Made by a program: the position numbers and the translations under genes. The notes beneath the pieces are model-generated. The model searched no databases, was not told where the DNA came from, and saw only the letters and a program-made list of their open reading frames with translations. A stretch of 64,000 nt of DNA from a virus, in IMG/VR virus record IMGVR_UViG_3300032214_001346, positions 1 to 64,000 of that record. One strand, given 5' to 3'. Of this stretch, positions 11,655-60,991 are shown one piece after another. The stretch's first letter is position 1. Each line of letters opens with the position of its first letter.

Positions 11655-12739
11655 CAACAGACTCAACTTTGCAACTAACACCGCAATTAGCCCCGCAGTT
11701 TGATACCGCTGTTTTAGATTTGAATTTTAAAAAAGGAGAGTCCGCCCAGTTTTCTGTAACTATTGCAGACTATAACCTCGATCTTCGTGGTTGTTTGGTA
11801 TTTGCAGAAATCAGAAAACTATCACCTGGATATAACCTTTTACAAGGCTTCACTGGTATCATTACTCAAGGTAGTGATACTATTTTGTTGCGTCAATATC
11901 CCACCACTCACGATAGATTCCAAGCTTTAAGTGCTTGCGGAATCCGTGCTGGGGATTTAATCACTTTGGAAGGATCTGGCATTACTGCTTCAAAAGTCTT
12001 AGCTGTGACAGATACCGCTTTGGTGTGTTCAACTCCAGCTACTCGGTCAATCAGCGAAGGTCGCTTATTTTTAAGGTCTTTATCATCAGCTTCATTCACT
12101 GCTGTTCCCATTTCTACATTTGGAGAGATTGCTGCTAATGTAACGGCTGGCACTGTCACTGTATCTTCATCACCGGCTACTGTTCCTGCTGGGAATACTT
12201 TGATGTTTCGTAAAGCAGATGGAACAGCCCAGCCTTTCGTACTATCACAGGATTTAATTGTTGGCGGTACTGTAATTTCTGGTGCAGGTACTGTAACTAG
12301 TGGTGCGATCGCAAAAGTGGGAGTACAAACCATCATTGTTAATGAGCAAATGGCTGTTAACGCTACTTCTATCACTGTATCACCTTTGTTAATGGGAATT
12401 GAAGCAGGGGCTTTGTTGAACTTTGCTATTAGAACCAGTGACGGGTGGCAATATGTAGGAAAAGCCATTACTTCCAGTGCTGTAGCCCACAGTGTCCCAA
12501 CCAGCCCAATTACTTCTATTCCTGTAGAAGCTTTGACATCAGCAATTCCTAAGAATGCGATCGCCTGGCACGGAAACACGCCTTTCAATTCTTTTTATTT
12601 AGCTATAGATCCAGCGGACACCCACTTTTTAGAATCTGGATTGTACGGATACGACGTGATTTGTAGAAAACCTGATGGATATACGATAAGATTGATACAA
12701 GGCAAAGTATCTTTGTCTGACCATTGGAGTGATTTGTAG
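11651..12739 (+). CDS. Tail fibre/baseplate adaptor-like protein (module copy 2, gene B)
   Basis: Paralog of 5142..6215. Confidence 0.55.
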   Translation: MTTDSTLQLTPQLAPQFDTAVLDLNFKKGESAQFSVTIADYNLDLRGCLVFAEIRKLSPGYNLLQGFTGIITQGSDTILLRQYPTTHDRFQALSACGIRAGDLITLEGSGITASKVLAVTDTALVCSTPATRSISEGRLFLRSLSSASFTAVPISTFGEIAANVTAGTVTVSSSPATVPAGNTLMFRKADGTAQPFVLSQDLIVGGTVISGAGTVTSGAIAKVGVQTIIVNEQMAVNATSITVSPLLMGIEAGALLNFAIRTSDGWQYVGKAITSSAVAHSVPTSPITSIPVEALTSAIPKNAIAWHGNTPFNSFYLAIDPADTHFLESGLYGYDVICRKPDGYTIRLIQGKVSLSDHWSDL

Positions 12740-12772: not shown

Positions 12773-14686
12773 ATGGCTGATGTAATTGTTTCTAGATCAA
12801 TTCCGATTGAACCCGGTCGCAAAACCGCAAATCAAAGTATTTCAGTAACTTTACCCACGGATCAGGCGGAACTATATGTAGTAGATGCGGCAACTTCACG
12901 TTCAGAAGTACGCGAATCTATGTTTGGTTTTGAAACCACTGAGCGTAGGCAATTTCTATTACAGGAACTCCCTTCTTATGGGATTGACTTGAATGTTTGG
13001 TCCAATACGGGAAACGTAAATTATATTCCTAGTATTGGTGGTATTGAATTGACGGTACCATCAACTAGTAGCTTTTCAACGCACCAAACACAATTTGCAT
13101 TTAAATATCAGCCCGGAAAACAGATATCCATATCACAAGCTGTACAGGTGGCTATGGGACCGGCGATCGCTAACTCTATCGTTCAATGGGGAGAATTTAC
13201 CCGGCGTGATGGGTATGGGTGGCGGCTAATGACAAAGGATAGAGGAGCAAACTTAGGCAGCACCACTATTCGTCCTTGGGACAATTATTTATACTTTTTT
13301 AGGCGAACATCAGCTATACCATCTTCAGTCCCTTCTGCAACAAAAGTCACTGCTGACGTAGTAGCGGGTATGTCTACCTCTAGCGCTCTAGGTGTATTGG
13401 TAGGGGATAGTTTATTATACCGGCCTAGTTATTTGGTTGGCGCTGATGGATTAAGCACTACTTATATTGATATAGACACCTGGGAGGAATTAGCTTATAC
13501 AAGTGTAGTTCCAACTCAAAGTACATTTAATTGTGATAAATACACTGGATTAGCAGGAGACGGGATTCCTGGGATTGATAACTCTAGGGGGACTAGTGCC
13601 AGACAAGTATCAGCAATTACTACTAGTTATGAAGTTACAGGTTGCACTACAACCAGCACTTCAACAACTGTAACTTGCAATACTACTGATGGGACGACAC
13701 AAGTGCTAAAAGTCGGCATGAGTGTCAGGGGAGCGGGAATACCAGCAGGAACAGTCATTAGACTTGTTAGCGGAACGGGAATAACTATAAGCAATGCAGC
13801 TACAGCAACCAGTACCACTGTTACTTTGTTTTTTAATGAAGTAGCGAATTTAGCTATGTTTTTGATTCAGCGTAGTTGGTATGGTGGTTCTGGTGGTCGG
13901 TGCTTAATCTATATGCCAGATCAGAATCCTCCTTACAACGGGGGGACACGCTGGGTTAAAGGGCATGAAATCAGAATTGGGGATACTTTACCTGTGGCTT
14001 CAATGTCCAGTCCTGATATGCCAGTGACTTACTTGATCGGGAAAAGAGCAGGAAATAGCACAGTTGATGGTAGTGCTTTCTTACGTCGCTTTGGTGTATC
14101 TGTATGGATTGATGGAGGTGATCCGCGTCCTGCCAAAATTGAGTCTGCTAGTGCCACTGGCGTGACTGTAAGCAATAGTGCTTATCATCCAATGTTGGCT
14201 TTAGCTATTAAGCCTTGGGTTTGGAATAAAGACGTAACAAGCAACAAAAGACCGCAACGCTCGCGTGTATATCCGTACAAGTTAATGGCTTCTTCTACTC
14301 AGAATACAGAACTTTACTTTATCAAGTGTCCTGTGAGTCAAGTAACGGCACTGGGTAGTGGTACTTCATGGTATTTAGGGCAATCTGCGAGCGATCATTT
14401 GAAAGTGGTGGCTACAACTAGAATATTCACAGGAACAATTGTCTCTACTTCAGGATATCCTAGCGGCGTTTCTGGAAAGTTGATCGGGGCATTTTATATA
14501 GGTGCGAATGAGTCTGTGGACATTGACTTATTAGAGATTTTTGATCCGCAAAGAGAACTTTTGGGAAGAGGAGAAACACCAATCACTGACGACACCCCAG
14601 GTGATTGTTTATTAATAATTTGCCGATCTTTAGTGGCTAGTACCAATGCGATCGCTTCTGTATCCTTGATTTATGGGGTGCAATAA
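12773..14686 (+). CDS. Putative tail fibre/structural protein (module copy 2, gene C)
   Basis: Paralog of 6218..7798 with insertions. Confidence 0.55.
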   Translation: MADVIVSRSIPIEPGRKTANQSISVTLPTDQAELYVVDAATSRSEVRESMFGFETTERRQFLLQELPSYGIDLNVWSNTGNVNYIPSIGGIELTVPSTSSFSTHQTQFAFKYQPGKQISISQAVQVAMGPAIANSIVQWGEFTRRDGYGWRLMTKDRGANLGSTTIRPWDNYLYFFRRTSAIPSSVPSATKVTADVVAGMSTSSALGVLVGDSLLYRPSYLVGADGLSTTYIDIDTWEELAYTSVVPTQSTFNCDKYTGLAGDGIPGIDNSRGTSARQVSAITTSYEVTGCTTTSTSTTVTCNTTDGTTQVLKVGMSVRGAGIPAGTVIRLVSGTGITISNAATATSTTVTLFFNEVANLAMFLIQRSWYGGSGGRCLIYMPDQNPPYNGGTRWVKGHEIRIGDTLPVASMSSPDMPVTYLIGKRAGNSTVDGSAFLRRFGVSVWIDGGDPRPAKIESASATGVTVSNSAYHPMLALAIKPWVWNKDVTSNKRPQRSRVYPYKLMASSTQNTELYFIKCPVSQVTALGSGTSWYLGQSASDHLKVVATTRIFTGTIVSTSGYPSGVSGKLIGAFYIGANESVDIDLLEIFDPQRELLGRGETPITDDTPGDCLLIICRSLVASTNAIASVSLIYGVQ

Positions 14687-25716: not shown

Positions 25717-26848
25717 AACGCGGTTGATTAATCAATGCGTAGTCGAGATACGCTCGATTCCAACTACGTTTGCTACAAAAGTCTTCTAAGCTTTTGCAAT
25801 TGATGTATTGCTCCCATACGGTTTGATGCTGGATTGGCTGCCAGGTTAATACAGCGTCAGGAAGGGGGACTAAAGCCATTTCTTTTTTAGTTTTGATGGA
25901 ATATTCCTTCCATCTGATTTCTAAGTTGTTATGGTCTTTTTTGAGGTGGCTGTAGACATTAGCCCGTGACTCATGGATATCAGTTCCAAATTTGCCCGCC
26001 CACTCCAAAGCGAACCATTGCCAAAAGTCATTATCCAGTTGGCCGTTTTTCTTCCATGGACCATCTGGTAGCCATTCCCATGCTATATCTTTTGCGCTTT
26101 TACGCGGTTTTCCAAATGGTTCAACCACATTTGCCTTGTCAAGACGCGCCGGGGCGGCGGGCGCAACTTTGTCCAATGAGAGATTTATCTGTTTACCCGA
26201 AATTCCTTCCTTTAAATCAGGAATAGCAGATATCTGTTCTACTCCATCTTGTTTTAAATCCTCTTTAGCGGGAGGAAGTCCGCTAGATACTTCTTCTTTA
26301 GATATTTCTTTCTTAAATACTTCTTGGAATAAGTATTTATTATGTGGCAGGTTTTCCGTAGCCGGATTTTCCGTAGCCGGATTTTCCGTAGCCGGATTTT
26401 CCGTAGCCGGATTTTCCGTAGCTGGATTTTCCGTAGCCGGATTTTCCGTAGCCGGATTTTCCGTAGCCGGATTTTCCGTAGCCGGAAAACCTGATTCCGG
26501 TTTTACCCTTGCTGTACGGGCTTTCTGAGTTTTTTTGCTTGGTTCGCTTGATGGTATTTCCCGAATAACAGATTTCCATCCTGCCATTCTTCCGTTTACT
26601 CGTGCTTGCTCACGAGTTAAATACCCAAACTTTTCTAATTCTTTTAATGCTGAACAAACAGATGTTTTTCCGTCAGATTCAGACTGGTCAGACAAATGTT
26701 CGGTATTAATCTCCCACCCATCAGGGTAGGAAAGCAATAAGTGATGTAGCCCACGCGCTTTGAAGCTCAACCGCGTATCTCTAATAGCCGCGTTGGCTAT
26801 TACTGTGTAATCTTTTGAATGCTGCACTCTTATTGTTTCCCCCATCAC
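25685..26848 (-). CDS. Phage replication initiator (N-terminal wHTH, internal iteron region)
   Basis: YTVIAN..IRD.RLS.KARGL...LLS.PDGW...AL.ELE..GYL; (PATEN)9; upstream of dnaB. Confidence 0.85.
   Translation of the reverse strand: MMGETIRVQHSKDYTVIANAAIRDTRLSFKARGLHHLLLSYPDGWEINTEHLSDQSESDGKTSVCSALKELEKFGYLTREQARVNGRMAGWKSVIREIPSSEPSKKTQKARTARVKPESGFPATENPATENPATENPATENPATENPATENPATENPATENPATENLPHNKYLFQEVFKKEISKEEVSSGLPPAKEDLKQDGVEQISAIPDLKEGISGKQINLSLDKVAPAAPARLDKANVVEPFGKPRKSAKDIAWEWLPDGPWKKNGQLDNDFWQWFALEWAGKFGTDIHESRANVYSHLKKDHNNLEIRWKEYSIKTKKEMALVPLPDAVLTWQPIQHQTVWEQYINCKSLEDFCSKRSWNRAYLDYALINQPRFDWSKHLPSA
26352..26486. repeat. 9 x 15-bp iterons TTTTCCGTAGCCGGA; probable replication origin within the initiator gene
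   Basis: Nine contiguous units, one with a single change; AT-rich tract adjacent; lambda O-like arrangement. Confidence 0.9.
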
Positions 26849-51605: not shown

Positions 51606-51735
51606 AGTTGACCTGTTAGTTAGGTTGACCCCAGCGATAAGACTTCATGGGTGGCTGTATCCACCTTTTGAAGTGCTGGTATTTTAATTATAACACTTAA
51701 TCGCAAATATAACTACACTTATTGATATAATAATT

Positions 51736-56886: not shown

Positions 56887-57218
56887 TTATCCACAATCAG
56901 GTTTTCCAGCTACGGAAAAACCACAAGCGGAAAAACCAGCTACGGAAAAACCACAAGCGGAAAATCCGGCTACGGAAAATCCGGCTACGGAAAATCTGCT
57001 ATATAATAAATATCTATTCCAATAAGTATTTAATTAAAGAATTATCTAAAGAGGAAGTATCTAAGCGGAATGCCCCTCATAAGAGGATTTAAGAAAAGAA
57101 CTAACACAACAGATATCTGTTATTCCTGGCTTAAAGACAAATATTTTTAGAGAACAGATAAATCACTCATTGGATCAGGTTATGCCCGCCCGCCGCGCTT
57201 AAAAATGACAAGAAGCTA
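56887..57218 (+). pseudogene. Non-coding inverted copy of the initiator's origin segment: DnaA box TTATCCACA (56887-56895), six 15-bp iterons (56906-56995), AT-rich tract
   Basis: Translates to SGFPATEKPQAEKPATEKPQAENPATENPATENLLYNKYLFQ*, then frameshifted homology to EEVS...QIS.IP.LK...QIN.SLD.V.PA. Confidence 0.85.
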
Positions 57219-57318
57219 TAGATAGTAAAGCGTAAATTACATCACTCAACTACAATCAAGTACCTTCATGGCGGAAATAACACCAATTCCTGTAATTCCT
57301 GTTTCTCCTATGAGTCCA

Positions 57319-57337
57319 CTTGCAATTAACCCAGTTC
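57319..57337 (-). CRISPR. Isolated 19-nt 3' half of the CRISPR repeat (GAACTGGGTTAATTGCAAG)
   Basis: Exact match to the array repeat. Confidence 0.75.
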
Positions 57338-57388
57338 AGGTGTCTTTATTTTAGTAAAGAAAGCCTTGAAAGCCTTATATTCTCGATC

Positions 57389-57476
57389 CGTTAAAAGTAA
57401 CGTTGGAGTCGTTAAAAGTAACGTTGGAGTCGTTAAAAGTAAGGTTGGAGTCGTTAAAAGTAACGTTGGAGTCGTT
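57389..57476. repeat. 4 x 21-bp tandem repeat CGTTAAAAGTAACGTTGGAGT (iteron-like)
   Basis: Four contiguous units with one substitution; followed by an AT-rich TTAATTAACA duplication. Confidence 0.9.
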
Positions 57477-57565
57477 GAATTTAAGGTTTCATCTATATTA
57501 TTAAACAATCTTAATTAACAGTCTTAATTAACAATCTTTAGCTTAAGCGTAAATAAAAAAGCTTC

Positions 57566-57695
57566 TTTAAGAAAAGAACTAATACAACAGATATCTGTTA
57601 TTCCTGGCTTAAAAGTAAATATTTTTAGAGAACAGATAAATCACTCATTGGATCAGGTTATGCCCGCCGCCGCGCTTAAAAATGACAAAAAGCTA
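57566..57695 (+). repeat. About 130-bp direct repeat of 57088-57218
   Basis: TTTAAGAAAAGAACTAA...CACTCATTGGATCAGGTTATGCCCG...AAAAATGACAA nearly identical. Confidence 0.9.
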
Positions 57696-57807
57696 ATAGA
57701 CTTTGGTTCAGAATTTATAAAGCAATTTTAAAGCGTACTTATTGAATAAATAAAAAAATACCCACTAAAGCGTGTTAGTGGGTATCAGGTTGAAACCTAC
57801 AATGCAA

Positions 57808-58011
57808 CTATAACACTGTTGAAACAGCCAAGACATCATTCATGTCTTGTCCATAATATTGAACTTCAGCGGTTCTCCGTCCAAAGCGAATATCCGCGTT
57901 TCCGCCGAAGGCTCTAATTTTCCCTGCGGACATCTTGACGTACACCTGGTTATCGTCCGTTAGGGAAAAATACCCGCAGACTGGTACATCTTTAAATTGT
58001 CTAAGCTTCAT
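57808..58011 (-). CDS. 67-aa hypothetical protein with its own consensus promoter (TTGACA-17-TAGACT, 58046-58074)
   Basis: AGGAG RBS, promoter and downstream hairpin terminator. Confidence 0.65.
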   Translation of the reverse strand: MKLRQFKDVPVCGYFSLTDDNQVYVKMSAGKIRAFGGNADIRFGRRTAEVQYYGQDMNDVLAVSTVL

Positions 58012-58115
58012 TGTTTTGTCTCCTTGTCTCCTGATTTATAAATATAGTCTATCTTATTTTTTGTTTACTGTCAAGTGGTTTTAGAAAATATTTGTTTCGC
58101 TTGCTTGCTTGAATT

Positions 58116-58223
58116 CTTGCAATTAACCCAGTCCCTCAAGTCCGGTTTCACCACGCTGAAACACAATTTAATACTTTAACTTACACCTTGCAATTAACTC
58201 AGTCCCTCAAGGTCGATTTCACC
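58116..58223 (-). CRISPR. Degenerate mini-array: two diverged 37-bp repeats (58116-58152, 58187-58223) and one 34-nt spacer
   Basis: CTTGCAATTAAC.CAGT and TTTCACC ends conserved; centre diverged. Confidence 0.85.
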
Positions 58224-58353
58224 TTTACCCCTATTATAGCATTATTTCTTATTAGGAAACAATTGCTCAAGTACCCGTCCTACAGTAGTTCCTAACCACT
58301 GACCACCGCGTTTTGAGGGTATGTTTTTATTGTTTAAATAATCTGCGATCTAG

Positions 58354-58593
58354 CTAAAAATCAACTCTACCATCACTGTTTAATTGGAATGTTTCGGCGT
58401 AGTCCTTGGCGATGAAACTGCTTATTAAGTCTACAGTGGTTACTTCGTTCATGGTTTTGTCGTAATACTGAGCATAATCTGATATGGTTTTATAGGCCAC
58501 TATTAGGTTTATGGCACTAGCTTTTAGTTCCGGGTTGTTCCAATCTGTCTTGTTGATGAACGCCAATTCTTTGCTGATATCCATTAATTCCAT
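58354..58593 (-). CDS. 79-aa hypothetical protein lying between the main array and the mini-array
   Basis: ORF behind a TGCTATAAT box; flanked by 36-bp direct repeats. Confidence 0.6.
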   Translation of the reverse strand: MELMDISKELAFINKTDWNNPELKASAINLIVAYKTISDYAQYYDKTMNEVTTVDLISSFIAKDYAETFQLNSDGRVDF

Positions 58594-58648
58594 AGCTTTT
58601 AAGGGGTAGGTTTTACCCCTATTATAGCATTATTTCTTATTAGGAAAT

Positions 58649-59049
58649 CTTGCAATTAACCCAGTTTCCCAAGGTCGGCTTCACCAATTAAATAGCACCG
58701 GCACTAATGATGAGATAAGAGTCTTGCAATTAACCCAGTTCCCTAAGGTCGGTTTCACCTTCTGAATATTGAATCTTTGATAGAAGCTAACTTGCAATTA
58801 ACCCAGTTCCCTAAGGTCGGTTTCACCAACTCGATGTTTTTTATTCCTGATTTTGAATCAAATCTTGCAATTAACCCAGTTCCCTAAGGTCGGTTTCACC
58901 CAAACCGGGAGGGTTGATGGAATTTAGGTCGACACTTGCAATTAACCCAGTTCCCTAAGGTCGGTTTCACCTTTGAAGCTCAAAAAAAGAGATTAGAGTT
59001 GAATTTTCTTGCCTTGCAATTAACCCAGTTCCCTAAGGTCGGTTTCACC
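58649..59049 (-). CRISPR. CRISPR array: six 37-bp repeats GGTGAAACCGACCTTAGGGAACTGGGTTAATTGCAAG with five spacers (41, 34, 36, 31, 37 nt in transcription order)
   Basis: Repeats at 59013-59049, 58935-58971, 58864-58900, 58791-58827, 58723-58759 (identical) and 58649-58685 (3 mismatches, trailer end); unique spacers. Confidence 0.97.
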
Positions 59050-60783
59050 TGCCGTATCCCAGATCGTAAGCTGTGTAAAGGTTTCATCCCCTGATTGCGC
59101 GGATCTCTTATTTTTCTTTGTTCCAGGTTTTTGAGTTTTCGCTGAATTAGCTGAAATGCTTATTGGGTAAGGTGCGCGGGTGCTTGGTAAATTGTCAAGG
59201 TTCGGATTGCTTACGGTGTCTACCTTTGAGGTTGTTTTCACGGCTTTAGAGGTTTTTACATCCCCCCTTCCGCGCTGAGTTCCCCTTTCGGGGTTTAATT
59301 GGGAGGAATATCCATCCTCCGGTGGTGCTTGCACACCTTCCTGGTGACATCCCGTATTGGAATCAGAGCCAGGCTTTCGGGTTTCCCCATGTTCCCACGC
59401 CCAAGCGCGGTACACTGCTGATAATTGTTTTTTGCCTTTGAGCAAGATGTTCTTAGCTGCATTAGAATCACGTCCTTCTGTGTGACCACATTCTGTACAG
59501 CGGTGAGTTCTTTGGCTCAATGCTTTCTTTATTTTAGCACCACATTTTGAACAGTCAACCGTAGTGAAATGAGCAGCAACTTTTACAAACTCTCTATCAG
59601 TATCTTTACACTTTGTTTCAATTTTACTGATTAAATCACCCAGTGCTGAATCAGCAAAACTTTTGTTTAACCCAGCTTTACGTTTTGCACCGTTTTGTTC
59701 ATAGCCATTGCCGTCCTCACGTTTCTTGGCTTTGGGCTTACGGTTCAGGTTTTGTATCTTTAAGTCTTCCATCACAATCCCAGAATACTCACGCACAACT
59801 TTAGTAGATAACTTATGGTTAAAAGCGTTACGGCTGCGGCGGATCTTTTCATGGTGTAAAGCTATTTTTTGATAGGTTTTCTTCTGATTACATCCTCCCT
59901 TTTGTTGCCTAGACGCTTTACGCTGTAACCGTCTTAGCTTTGCTTGTTGTTTCCTAAATAGCTTAGGCGGTTCTATTTCTCTCCCCTGATCTGTGGTGAT
60001 AATTGATAGTAAACCCGGATCAATTCCTACTGCTTTATCAGATTTTGGTAATGGGTCATTGGGGATATCAACGCATACATGAAGATAGTAACCTGATGGT
60101 TCTTTAACTATTCTGGCAGGACCCCATTCTTGCCAGTCATATCTATCAAATAATCCTTTAACTTTAATTTTACCAAGTTTAGGGAACTGGACATAGCCAT
60201 TATTTGAGCCGGGTATTTTTTCCGGTTTTAGTTCTTTGGATAAACCCCCAGCATTGAGATTAACAAGTGACTTGATTTTATCATTTCTCCCTTTGAATTT
60301 TGGCTTTCTACCGGGGTGTTTTGGGGTAACGTAAGCTTTCCATGATTTCTTTAAAGAATCAATTACCCCTGCCTTAAATTTAGTGGGAACATCTGCCATA
60401 AAGTCGGGAATATTGTCACTCCTATAAAATTCACATTGTCCATATTTATCAGGGTTTTCAATATTCAAATGTTGTCTAATTTCACAGTAAGGATGACCGC
60501 TTTTAGGTCTGATGACACCTGTACCGACTAAGCGGACTTTTTCCCACTTCTCAGTAGACTTACCTTTCTTGTCTTCAGTAACAACCTTTCGCCATTTCCA
60601 CTGCAAAACTACACCATCAGGAATAATGCGATCGCTTATTTCTTTCTCTCTATAATATTTCTGTCTTCCTGCTAGTTTGAGTGACAGCCCTGTATTCCAA
60701 ACCCACTTGAGTTTGTCTAGCCATTGATTAATCGTTTGTACCTGTGCAACCGTGGGGTCAAGTTTAAATTCAAAAGTTTTCAT
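59020..60783 (-). CDS. TnpB/Cas12f-like RNA-guided RuvC nuclease, CRISPR-associated (compact type V candidate)
   Basis: KTFEFKLDPT...WVWN N-terminus; RuvC-I GIDPG, RuvC-II VMEDL, Zn finger CSKC/CTEC, RuvC-III RDSNAAKNI; directly fused to the array. Confidence 0.9.
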   Translation of the reverse strand: MKTFEFKLDPTVAQVQTINQWLDKLKWVWNTGLSLKLAGRQKYYREKEISDRIIPDGVVLQWKWRKVVTEDKKGKSTEKWEKVRLVGTGVIRPKSGHPYCEIRQHLNIENPDKYGQCEFYRSDNIPDFMADVPTKFKAGVIDSLKKSWKAYVTPKHPGRKPKFKGRNDKIKSLVNLNAGGLSKELKPEKIPGSNNGYVQFPKLGKIKVKGLFDRYDWQEWGPARIVKEPSGYYLHVCVDIPNDPLPKSDKAVGIDPGLLSIITTDQGREIEPPKLFRKQQAKLRRLQRKASRQQKGGCNQKKTYQKIALHHEKIRRSRNAFNHKLSTKVVREYSGIVMEDLKIQNLNRKPKAKKREDGNGYEQNGAKRKAGLNKSFADSALGDLISKIETKCKDTDREFVKVAAHFTTVDCSKCGAKIKKALSQRTHRCTECGHTEGRDSNAAKNILLKGKKQLSAVYRAWAWEHGETRKPGSDSNTGCHQEGVQAPPEDGYSSQLNPERGTQRGRGDVKTSKAVKTTSKVDTVSNPNLDNLPSTRAPYPISISANSAKTQKPGTKKNKRSAQSGDETFTQLTIWDTAGETDLRELG

Positions 60784-60816: not shown

Positions 60817-60878
60817 TCCTAGTGGTGGATTGATGCTGAGAACATCACCACGCGACTAGGTTTAAATATTATAGCATT
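60817..60878 (-). promoter_or_regulatory. Extended -10 (AATGCTATAATA) and 5'-UTR hairpin of the nuclease gene
   Basis: CCTAGT..GTGG.TGATG-loop-CATCA..CCAC.ACTAGG on the minus strand. Confidence 0.55.
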
Positions 60879-60991
60879 TAAACCAAATATATGACATTGA
60901 GGCAATTGAAACAGAAACTTTACGCTACAATAATAATGTCAAGCTCAGATATATTAAGGGTGCTGTCAGTAATGCTGACAGCTTTATCATT

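Follow-up and report, generated by a model that had tools for sequence, protein, structure and literature searches.

The window analysed here comprises the first 64 kb (64,000 nucleotides) of the 93,412-bp IMG/VR virus record IMGVR_UViG_3300032214_001346, which is judged 94% complete and belongs to a CL131-like cyanophage of about 93 kb. The phage carries a TnpB-like type V nuclease gene followed by a CRISPR array. This array is interrupted by a small open reading frame (ORF), named ORF79, that is bracketed by two identical copies of a 36-bp sequence. The 36-mer is very probably both a complete spacer (spacer 6) and the native promoter of the inserted gene. We consider it moderately probable that a foreign cassette was captured by homologous recombination of spacer 6 with its protospacer, the promoter of the cassette on a rival integrative element. 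If so, the locus would be a rare natural trace of CRISPR memory serving as a landing pad for gene capture. The features of the locus are listed in Table 1.

The duplication and the inserted segment

Exactly two copies of the 36-mer are present in the window, copy A at 58224-58259 and copy B at 58612-58647. As the original prediction had it, the two copies are identical at 36 of 36 positions; no such pair is expected in shuffled sequence. With up to 10 mismatches allowed, neither the remainder of the 93-kb genome nor six records of related phages gave a third copy. In the viral, metagenome and genome collections and GenBank phages searched, from which near relatives of the window may be absent, the sole match to either copy is the other copy at the same locus. 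On the minus strand, along which the nuclease gene reads, repeats R1 to R6 come first, followed by a single base (A), copy B, a leader of 18 nt, ORF79 itself, 93 nt and copy A, beyond which lie R7, spacer S7, R8, a conserved trailer, a gene for 67 amino acids (aa) and a terminator-like hairpin. Copy A adjoins R7 without a gap, copy B lies one base (58648) from R6, and the segment between the copies measures 352 bp (58260-58611). Once base 58648 or 58260 is counted the copies differ, with A against G on the minus strand. Deleting one copy together with the 352 bp, a unit of 388 bp, leaves an ordinary 37-nt spacer with repeats on both sides and, as had been claimed, a continuous array of eight repeats.

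The 36/37-mer has the position and the length of a spacer. It is bounded by array repeats, and copy B plus base 58648 gives 37 nt, within the range of the 74 other distinct spacers of the family (28-45 nt, mode 34-37, with one outlier of 52 nt), 11 of which are 37 nt long. Its G+C content is 24%, against a spacer mean of 37.5%. That the outer edges of the duplication lie at repeat borders, and that one copy plus 1 nt has a typical spacer length, speaks for capture through a spacer. No decayed or degenerate repeat is hidden within the insert, where the best alignment to the repeat scores the same as in shuffled sequences.

The repeats on the two sides of the insert form a graded series. R6 differs from R1-R5 at 3 positions, R8 is identical to the terminal repeats of the related phage G002, and R7 agrees with R8 in its middle and with R6 and R1 in its 5' part. 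The gradation from R8 through R7 and R6 to R1-R5 argues for one continuous, ageing array to which units were added on the nuclease-proximal side, and therefore suggests that R6, the 36/37-mer and R7 were once contiguous.

Both copies carry TGCTATAAT, a perfect extended -10 element on the minus strand that faces ORF79. In copy B this element ends 28 nt ahead of the ORF79 ATG; the insert contributes only 18 nt before that ATG and offers no other promoter. The genome holds 16 TGNTATAAT sites in 186,824 strand positions, mostly ahead of genes, and just one of the 74 other spacers contains such a site in sense orientation. One TGNTATAAT site precedes the nuclease gene, upstream of which TGCTATAAT is also found (60876-60868). 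The observation that the duplicated sequence contains a stretch identical to the -10 region of the nuclease gene was correct, over 12 nt (AATGCTATAATA), and is explained by the genome-wide occurrence of TGNTATAAT sites, including the one before that gene. A 7-bp hairpin (AGGGGUA / UACCCCU; 8 of 200 shuffled sequences fold as well) spans the border of copy B and the ORF79 leader, which argues that this boundary is native. A spacer hit by a chance insertion would be expected to show such properties in about 1 in 100 cases, whereas a spacer derived from a promoter would show them by construction. Copy B would be the promoter that drives ORF79 today, and copy A is so positioned that transcripts could start at about the first base of R7, which would keep the distal S7 guide expressed despite the insertion.

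Elsewhere in the phage, near-identical divergent promoter modules, TGTTATAAT / TGATATAAT, are found at 51695 and 53511 on the minus strand, with plus-strand partners at 51723 and 53539 and about 30 nt of flank in common. They recur ahead of antirepressor-type genes, indicating that the phage reuses promoter cassettes.

The 93 nt past the ORF79 stop encode, in the direction of ORF79, 30 residues that match the Recombinase domain PF07508 (21.7 bits, with a cut-off of 21.1; E 2.5e-4; profile positions 23-50 of 102). The fragment begins directly after an in-frame TAG beside the ORF79 stop and ends 3 nt short of copy A. Because it is cut at both ends within the domain, both ends are breakpoints. 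A tblastn search with the fragment returned annotated recombinase or serine integrase genes in 31 plasmids and 57 phages, at 46-63% identity. When all six frames of the genome were scanned with the PF07508 model, this fragment was the only match, and the domain is absent from five relatives (G001-G004 and G006), among them G002 with its complete 100-kb genome. Since PF07508 has no match elsewhere in the phage or in these five relatives, the insert is foreign. Judged by its sequence, it is a patchwork of foreign DNA whose donor was an element with a serine integrase. The original prediction noted neither this fragment nor the gradation of the repeats.

ORF79 itself encodes a small ORFan protein. 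The ORF reported in the original prediction is real, although the protein is probably 76 aa long rather than 79, given that four of its five small relatives begin at its fourth codon. The family is sparse: it makes up two clusters in 5.8 billion (5.8e9) proteins, and among 1.84 billion (1.84e9) representatives there are seven matches, of which the five small proteins measure 61-82 aa. Residues W18, N19, Y40, A41 and K46 are conserved across the relatives, one of which (P0002) is identical to ORF79 over the first 28 residues and then divergent. The AlphaFold model has three helices with a pLDDT (predicted local distance difference test) of 77. No match to the protein was found in Pfam, PHROGs or NCBIfam; with its structure, Foldseek found nothing below E 0.9 in PDB or BFVD, and the atlas matches were weak. 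ORF79 is absent from the phage relatives that were fetched.

Table 1. Positions of the array, the insert and adjoining features in the window
Feature	Position	Strand	Remarks
Downstream unit, end of array region	57757..58074	minus	promoter-like site 58074-58046; 67-aa ORF 58011-57808; terminator-like hairpin 57786-57757
Distal mini-array	58116..58223	minus	R7 58187-58223; S7 58153-58186; R8 58116-58152
Copy A, right copy of spacer 6	58224..58259	minus	promoter motif 58241-58233
Internal fragment of large serine recombinase (integrase) gene	58260..58352	minus	30 codons, in frame; both ends cut; adjoins copy A
ORF79, small helical ORFan protein	58354..58593	minus	likely true start at codon 4 (58584)
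Copy B, left copy of spacer 6	58612..58648	minus	36 nt + 1 nt; extended -10 TGCTATAAT at 58629-58621
Main array, R1-R6 with spacers S1-S5	58649..59049	minus	
Repeats R4, R5, R6	58791-58827, 58723-58759, 58649-58685	minus	
Repeats R1, R2, R3	59013-59049, 58935-58971, 58864-58900	minus	
TnpB-like type V nuclease gene	59020..60783	minus	587-aa ORF; catalytic core ends near residue 455
Nuclease-gene promoter-like site	60868..60897	minus	ATGTCA-18-TATAAT with TG

The nuclease and its targets

Pfam searches with the nuclease detected OrfB_IS605 (1.9e-21), Cas12f1-like TNB (6.6e-16) and HTH_OrfB domains. The nearest solved relative is Cas12p (9jfs_A; E 2e-29, 26% identity), followed by the TnpB of ISDra2. 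When the nuclease is aligned with either protein, its motifs GIDPG, MED and RDSN fall on the RuvC catalytic motifs, and the D-E-D triad is intact. The DNA of the gene is 77% identical to that of the 'transposase' of Aphanizomenon phage vB_AphaS-CL131, which the authors of that genome assigned to type V-U2 (PMC6293099). With its triad and Zn ribbon in a predicted TnpB-like fold, the protein qualifies as a V-U2 / Cas12p-like type V effector. Cas12p cuts double-stranded DNA, using a 185-nt trans-activating CRISPR RNA (tracrRNA) and a 5' GTN protospacer adjacent motif, or PAM (bioRxiv 10.1101/2025.01.20.633832). The repeat in the window does not end in AAAC in either orientation, unlike that of Cas12p, which pairs with a tracrRNA. 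Beyond the Zn ribbon, the ORF of the nuclease runs on for about 130 low-complexity codons (59020-59420) and stops inside R1, and it does likewise in relatives; this stretch probably encodes a tracrRNA-like RNA and not protein. Duplex folding for an anti-repeat or tracrRNA gave nothing better than shuffled repeats do, and Rfam gave no match.

The array appears to be directed at other phages of the same group. Spacer S7 matches G002:33160-33193 with 2 mismatches in 34 positions and G001:25112-25141 with 1 in 30; the target is the 3' end of a 481-aa gene that is present in both relatives and absent from the window. We take these matches as direct evidence for targeting of rival relatives by the phage-borne system. 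Among the spacer matches to GenBank phages, none was meaningful. If guides are oriented in the direction of the gene, the bases ahead of the S7 target are GTT in both G002 and G001, in agreement with the GTN PAM of Cas12p. The two good protospacers have 5' flanks of GTT and TGG in that direction and AGA for both in the opposite orientation.

The protospacer flanked by TGG is a self-match. The leader-proximal spacer of G001 (26467-26503) matches 37 of 37 positions in its own genome at 13840-13876, inside a 77-aa gene, and 36 of 37 in G002. Either self-targeting by this spacer is tolerated, or two strains were joined in a chimeric metagenome assembly.

Other observations concern the wider group of systems. 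Spacer S2 (58901-58934) overlaps a spacer in the Cas12p array of G006 (G006:12453-12478) at 24 of 26 nt, which means that two different CRISPR systems hold memories of one target. In the relative L031 (IMGVR_UViG_3300042378_000447), a second, convergent system lies directly after the first array. It consists of an array of 11 repeats of another 37-nt family (11766-12509) and a minus-strand gene (12794-14662); the encoded nuclease, of 622 aa, is essentially the same protein as the Cas12p of known structure (9jfs_A, 1415 bits). The hosts of Cas12p are given as unknown in the preprint (bioRxiv 10.1101/2025.01.20.633832). Its presence in L031, a CL131-like phage, points to Nostocales cyanobacteria as hosts, and the Cas12p family is now tied to CL131-like cyanophages of bloom-forming Nostocales.

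Possible routes of insertion

In the explanation that we favour, spacer 6 would originally have been an ordinary 37-nt spacer between R6 and R7. It would have been acquired from the promoter region of a small cassette on a foreign, integrase-bearing element; a temperate phage would be one candidate, some other integrative element of the same host another. The 36 bp common to spacer and protospacer would then have recombined homologously and so brought the cassette into the array, which could have happened by either of two routes. A circle of about 388 bp, made up of the promoter, ORF79 and the integrase remnant, may have integrated in the manner of Campbell; or a break in the spacer may have been gap-repaired by copying the segment between two promoter copies of the donor. 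Both would leave the spacer duplicated on the two sides of the cassette. An attractive variant is that the phage nuclease, by cutting the donor at the protospacer, may have stimulated the exchange. The left copy would now act as the promoter of ORF79, and the right copy could feed the distal S7 CRISPR RNA (crRNA) used against rival phages. The guide formed by R6 and spacer 6 would by now match the phage's own DNA. The phage probably tolerates this match, given that the expected PAM is missing at copy A and the first base of the guide is mismatched there.

Campbell-type capture predicts identical homology at both junctions and an insert foreign to the recipient lineage, and the locus shows both (36/36 for the homology). 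For contiguity of promoter and gene in the donor the support is indirect: the element in copy B is correctly spaced for ORF79, and the hairpin lies over the boundary. A structure of spacer, X and spacer, in which the start of X is functionally tied to the spacer, would be the expected product of circle integration or gap repair. Recombination through a spacer that captured foreign DNA was the first of three options raised by the original prediction, and it is the best supported of them: a complete spacer is duplicated, that spacer holds the promoter of the inserted gene, and the serine-integrase fragment is foreign to the phage and its five relatives.

Several points weigh against capture through a spacer. 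No donor was found, as the 36-mer, ORF79 and the integrase fragment were not detected outside the phage in any searchable collection. Parts of the 36-mer gave no match in viral contigs, and their single match in a metagenome contig (L057) is a chance identity of 21 nt in unrelated sequence. The ORF79 protein led to no donor in viral, metagenome or genome collections or in GenBank phages, the DNA of the locus to none in GenBank phages, and degenerate patterns for the integrase peptide to none in viral and genome collections. A promoter natively adjoining the gene was not observed in a donor, and neither was a second copy of the promoter there. The integrase fragment stops within 3 nt of copy A, inside the domain, and this breakpoint would have to lie in the donor. 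Searches of the phage for ERF and RecT were negative and no recognised phage recombinase was found, so that host RecA, or a phage protein that escaped recognition, would have been needed; for an exchange of the RecA type, moreover, a homology of 36 bp is short. The relatives, which have no spacers in common with the window, showed no uninterrupted allele. Finally, what supports the copy-B junction is the original assembly together with equal depth, rather than a bridging read.

Two other mechanisms could have produced a duplication of this kind, and we regard each as unlikely. An enzyme of the host resembling Cas1-Cas2 or a casposase may have attacked both borders of spacer 6 instead of a repeat and inserted the 352 bp; gap filling would then have duplicated the spacer as a target site, spacer 6 being of the same length as a repeat. 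A duplication of 36 bp that ends at repeat-spacer borders, the natural sites of attack, would suit such an enzyme, as the repeat measures 37 bp, and the arrays of relatives differ in all their spacers, so some adaptation machinery does act on them. The insert, however, is ten times the size of a spacer, the phage lacks Cas1 (an enzyme of the host is possible), and, since the duplicated sequence would belong to the target, both a perfect promoter in the right orientation, held by about 1% of spacers, and a hairpin shared with the insert would have to be put down to chance. Alternatively, the 36-mer may never have been a spacer but a mobile promoter module, comparable to the PeSL modules that T4-type phages have. 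Promoter, ORF79, remnant and promoter would then have moved as one unit and taken the place of the original spacer when two co-infecting relatives exchanged DNA through the repeats on either side. The promoter content of the 36-mer would agree with this, as would the reuse of the promoter modules at 51695/53511 and 51723/53539, the mosaic region downstream of the arrays of relatives, and the gene that in G001 lies between repeats with an imperfect duplication of about 60 nt, repeat plus trailer, around it. Yet a repeat-anchored exchange does not predict that both copies end exactly at repeat borders and are jointly of spacer length, and the genome and the six relatives contain no further copy of the module. 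The gene between repeats in G001 gives circumstantial support to the option that the array acts as a cassette platform, but an integrase, Cas1 and an attC-like site are all missing here: Cas1 (PF01867), tyrosine integrase (PF00589) and resolvase (PF00239) were not found in the 94% complete genome, and the 36-mer has no attC-like imperfect palindrome.

The remaining option was that repeat 6 and the duplicated sequence form a self-matching guide that regulates rather than cuts. The R6-S6 crRNA would bind copy A or the ORF79 promoter and repress without cleavage, and the duplication would have been kept for this regulation. The self-match is exact over 36 nt and its target overlaps the -10 box; the G001 spacer also matches its own genome perfectly; and some small type V effectors, such as Cas12m, silence without cutting (PMC11013384). 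Against such a selected circuit stand the intact RuvC D-E-D motifs and the nearest solved relative, which cleaves double-stranded DNA and requires a GTN PAM. The CAATTG reported ahead of copy A is present, but the flank of that copy is ATT and its first base, G, mismatches the A at position 1 of the guide; copy B is flanked by an array repeat, and the G001 self-match, with its TGG, is likewise PAM-less. We consider the circuit decidedly improbable, and the self-matches of the window and of G001 appear to fit tolerated, PAM-less matches better than a regulatory design. An artefact of assembly, in which the array is uninterrupted and the cassette lies on another molecule that shares the 36-mer, is barely credible. 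The record is a metagenome assembly, and the Logan unitigs of run X1 break inside both copies; they are built with k = 31, shorter than the 36-bp repeat, so no single unitig bridges the copy-B junction. Single unitigs from two independent studies (X5, 58187-58455, and X6, 58178-58426) nevertheless run from R7 through copy A into the insert, and depth in X1 is even over all pieces of the locus, at about 18-25. No Logan contig or unitig skips the insert or joins R7 to R6, an uninterrupted allele was not seen in four sequencing runs, and the identical ORF79 protein is recorded on five contigs, the longest of 97.7 kb.

Capture through a spacer has relatives among known systems. Spacer-protospacer recombination has been observed in the laboratory in staphylococci (Varble et al. 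2019, Nat Microbiol, as cited in PMC10434264). There too, according to that citation, a spacer serves as a short patch of homology that joins CRISPR DNA to DNA of the targeted element, whereas the arrays are those of the host and the outcome is transduction of the CRISPR locus. The window instead holds a natural footprint in a phage-borne type V array, with a gene captured into the array and the spacer duplicated. In T4-type phages, promoter-flanked ORFans are excised as mini-circles of about 400 bp that are thought to re-insert by general recombination (PMC2839356). The resemblance to such PeSL cassettes (PMC2839356, PMC4122927) extends to a small ORFan that follows a strong promoter module and has a direct copy of it on each side (here the sigma-70-like TGCTATAAT), a unit of the size of the mini-circles, and, as proposed here, integration by general recombination without a dedicated integrase. 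PeSL modules exist in many copies spread over hyperplastic regions; here there are only two, both of them halves of a CRISPR spacer, with none further in seven genomes at up to 10 mismatches, and the -10 box comes ahead of the stem-loop instead of following it. Off-target integration by Cas1-Cas2 would share a duplication of about repeat length (36 against 37 bp), but the insert measures 352 bp and not some 35 bp, there is a functional tie between duplicated sequence and insert, and the genome has no cas1.

Among phage-borne systems, the type V-U2 locus of CL131 (PMC6293099) and the Cas12p 'hacker' systems are similar in having a TnpB-like nuclease of 470-620 aa followed by an array with 36-37-nt repeats, no adaptation genes, and carriers that are phages of the same group. 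The nuclease of the window shares only 26% identity with Cas12p and goes with a different repeat, and no gene inside an array figures in those reports. Virus-borne mini-CRISPR arrays involved in interviral conflict (PMC6858448) likewise have spacers that match close viral relatives, as S7 does here with G001 and G002; they belong to archaeal viruses that work with host effectors, while the window phage brings its own nuclease.

The general idea that phage CRISPR arrays are homology traps, by which a phage that has taken up a spacer from the promoter of a rival can later steal the promoter-equipped gene, is a tentative one. A Cas12 cut at the rival's site would perhaps aid the theft through ends-in recombination, with the self-match surviving as a PAM/seed escape variant. 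If true, arrays would be sites of gene gain besides being records of immunity, which would explain genes between repeats in a second phage. Capture through a spacer would further mean that, with 36 bp of immune memory, a gene can pass from the element under attack to the genome that attacks it, and it would link interference, recombination and gene flow among competing phages. Natural products of spacer-protospacer recombination are hardly documented, and we found none in the literature for a virus-encoded CRISPR system. Spacer-mediated recombination and the shuffling of promoter cassettes are known; a natural footprint in a phage-encoded type V array would be new, pending a donor or an ancestral allele. 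The locus makes a simple test system, since its nuclease is small, its array is short and its 388-bp unit is defined.

Related loci and the surroundings of the array

The nuclease protein was used to fetch 13 related loci. Their arrays have 2-28 repeats of the same 37-nt family and no spacer in common with the window, which indicates that the arrays turn over. The unit downstream of the array, comprising the promoter-like site, the 67-aa ORF and the hairpin, is conserved in the relatives L031 and L015, and the region downstream of the arrays is a mosaic that differs in every relative. Adjacent spacer-repeat units are duplicated in two related arrays (G006:12159-12195 = 12233-12269 and L015:52-85 = 123-156), pointing to unequal exchange between repeats.

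A second case of a gene within an array of this family is found in G001, where a 209-aa ORF lies between repeats and reads through one of them (L023:9949-10735 = L008:234-969). The imperfect duplication that flanks it consists of the 3' part of the repeat, the array trailer and a ribosome-binding site.

Further downstream in the window, a 103-nt direct repeat, 96% identical, occurs at 57088-57190 and 57566-57668. The segment that it brackets contains 21-nt tandem repeats and half a CRISPR repeat. In run X3, positions 57129-57687 are missing from a relative, where 39 different letters stand instead, so that this second duplication-bounded cassette is polymorphic in nature. The orphan half-repeat (57317-57337) lies within the last codons of a truncated plus-strand gene, the full form of which (263 aa) is found at L031:15544-16335. 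At L025:9656-9780, the end of a gene of this type directly follows an array of 2 repeats, and the orphan half-repeat in the window may mark an old array end and not a separate guide.

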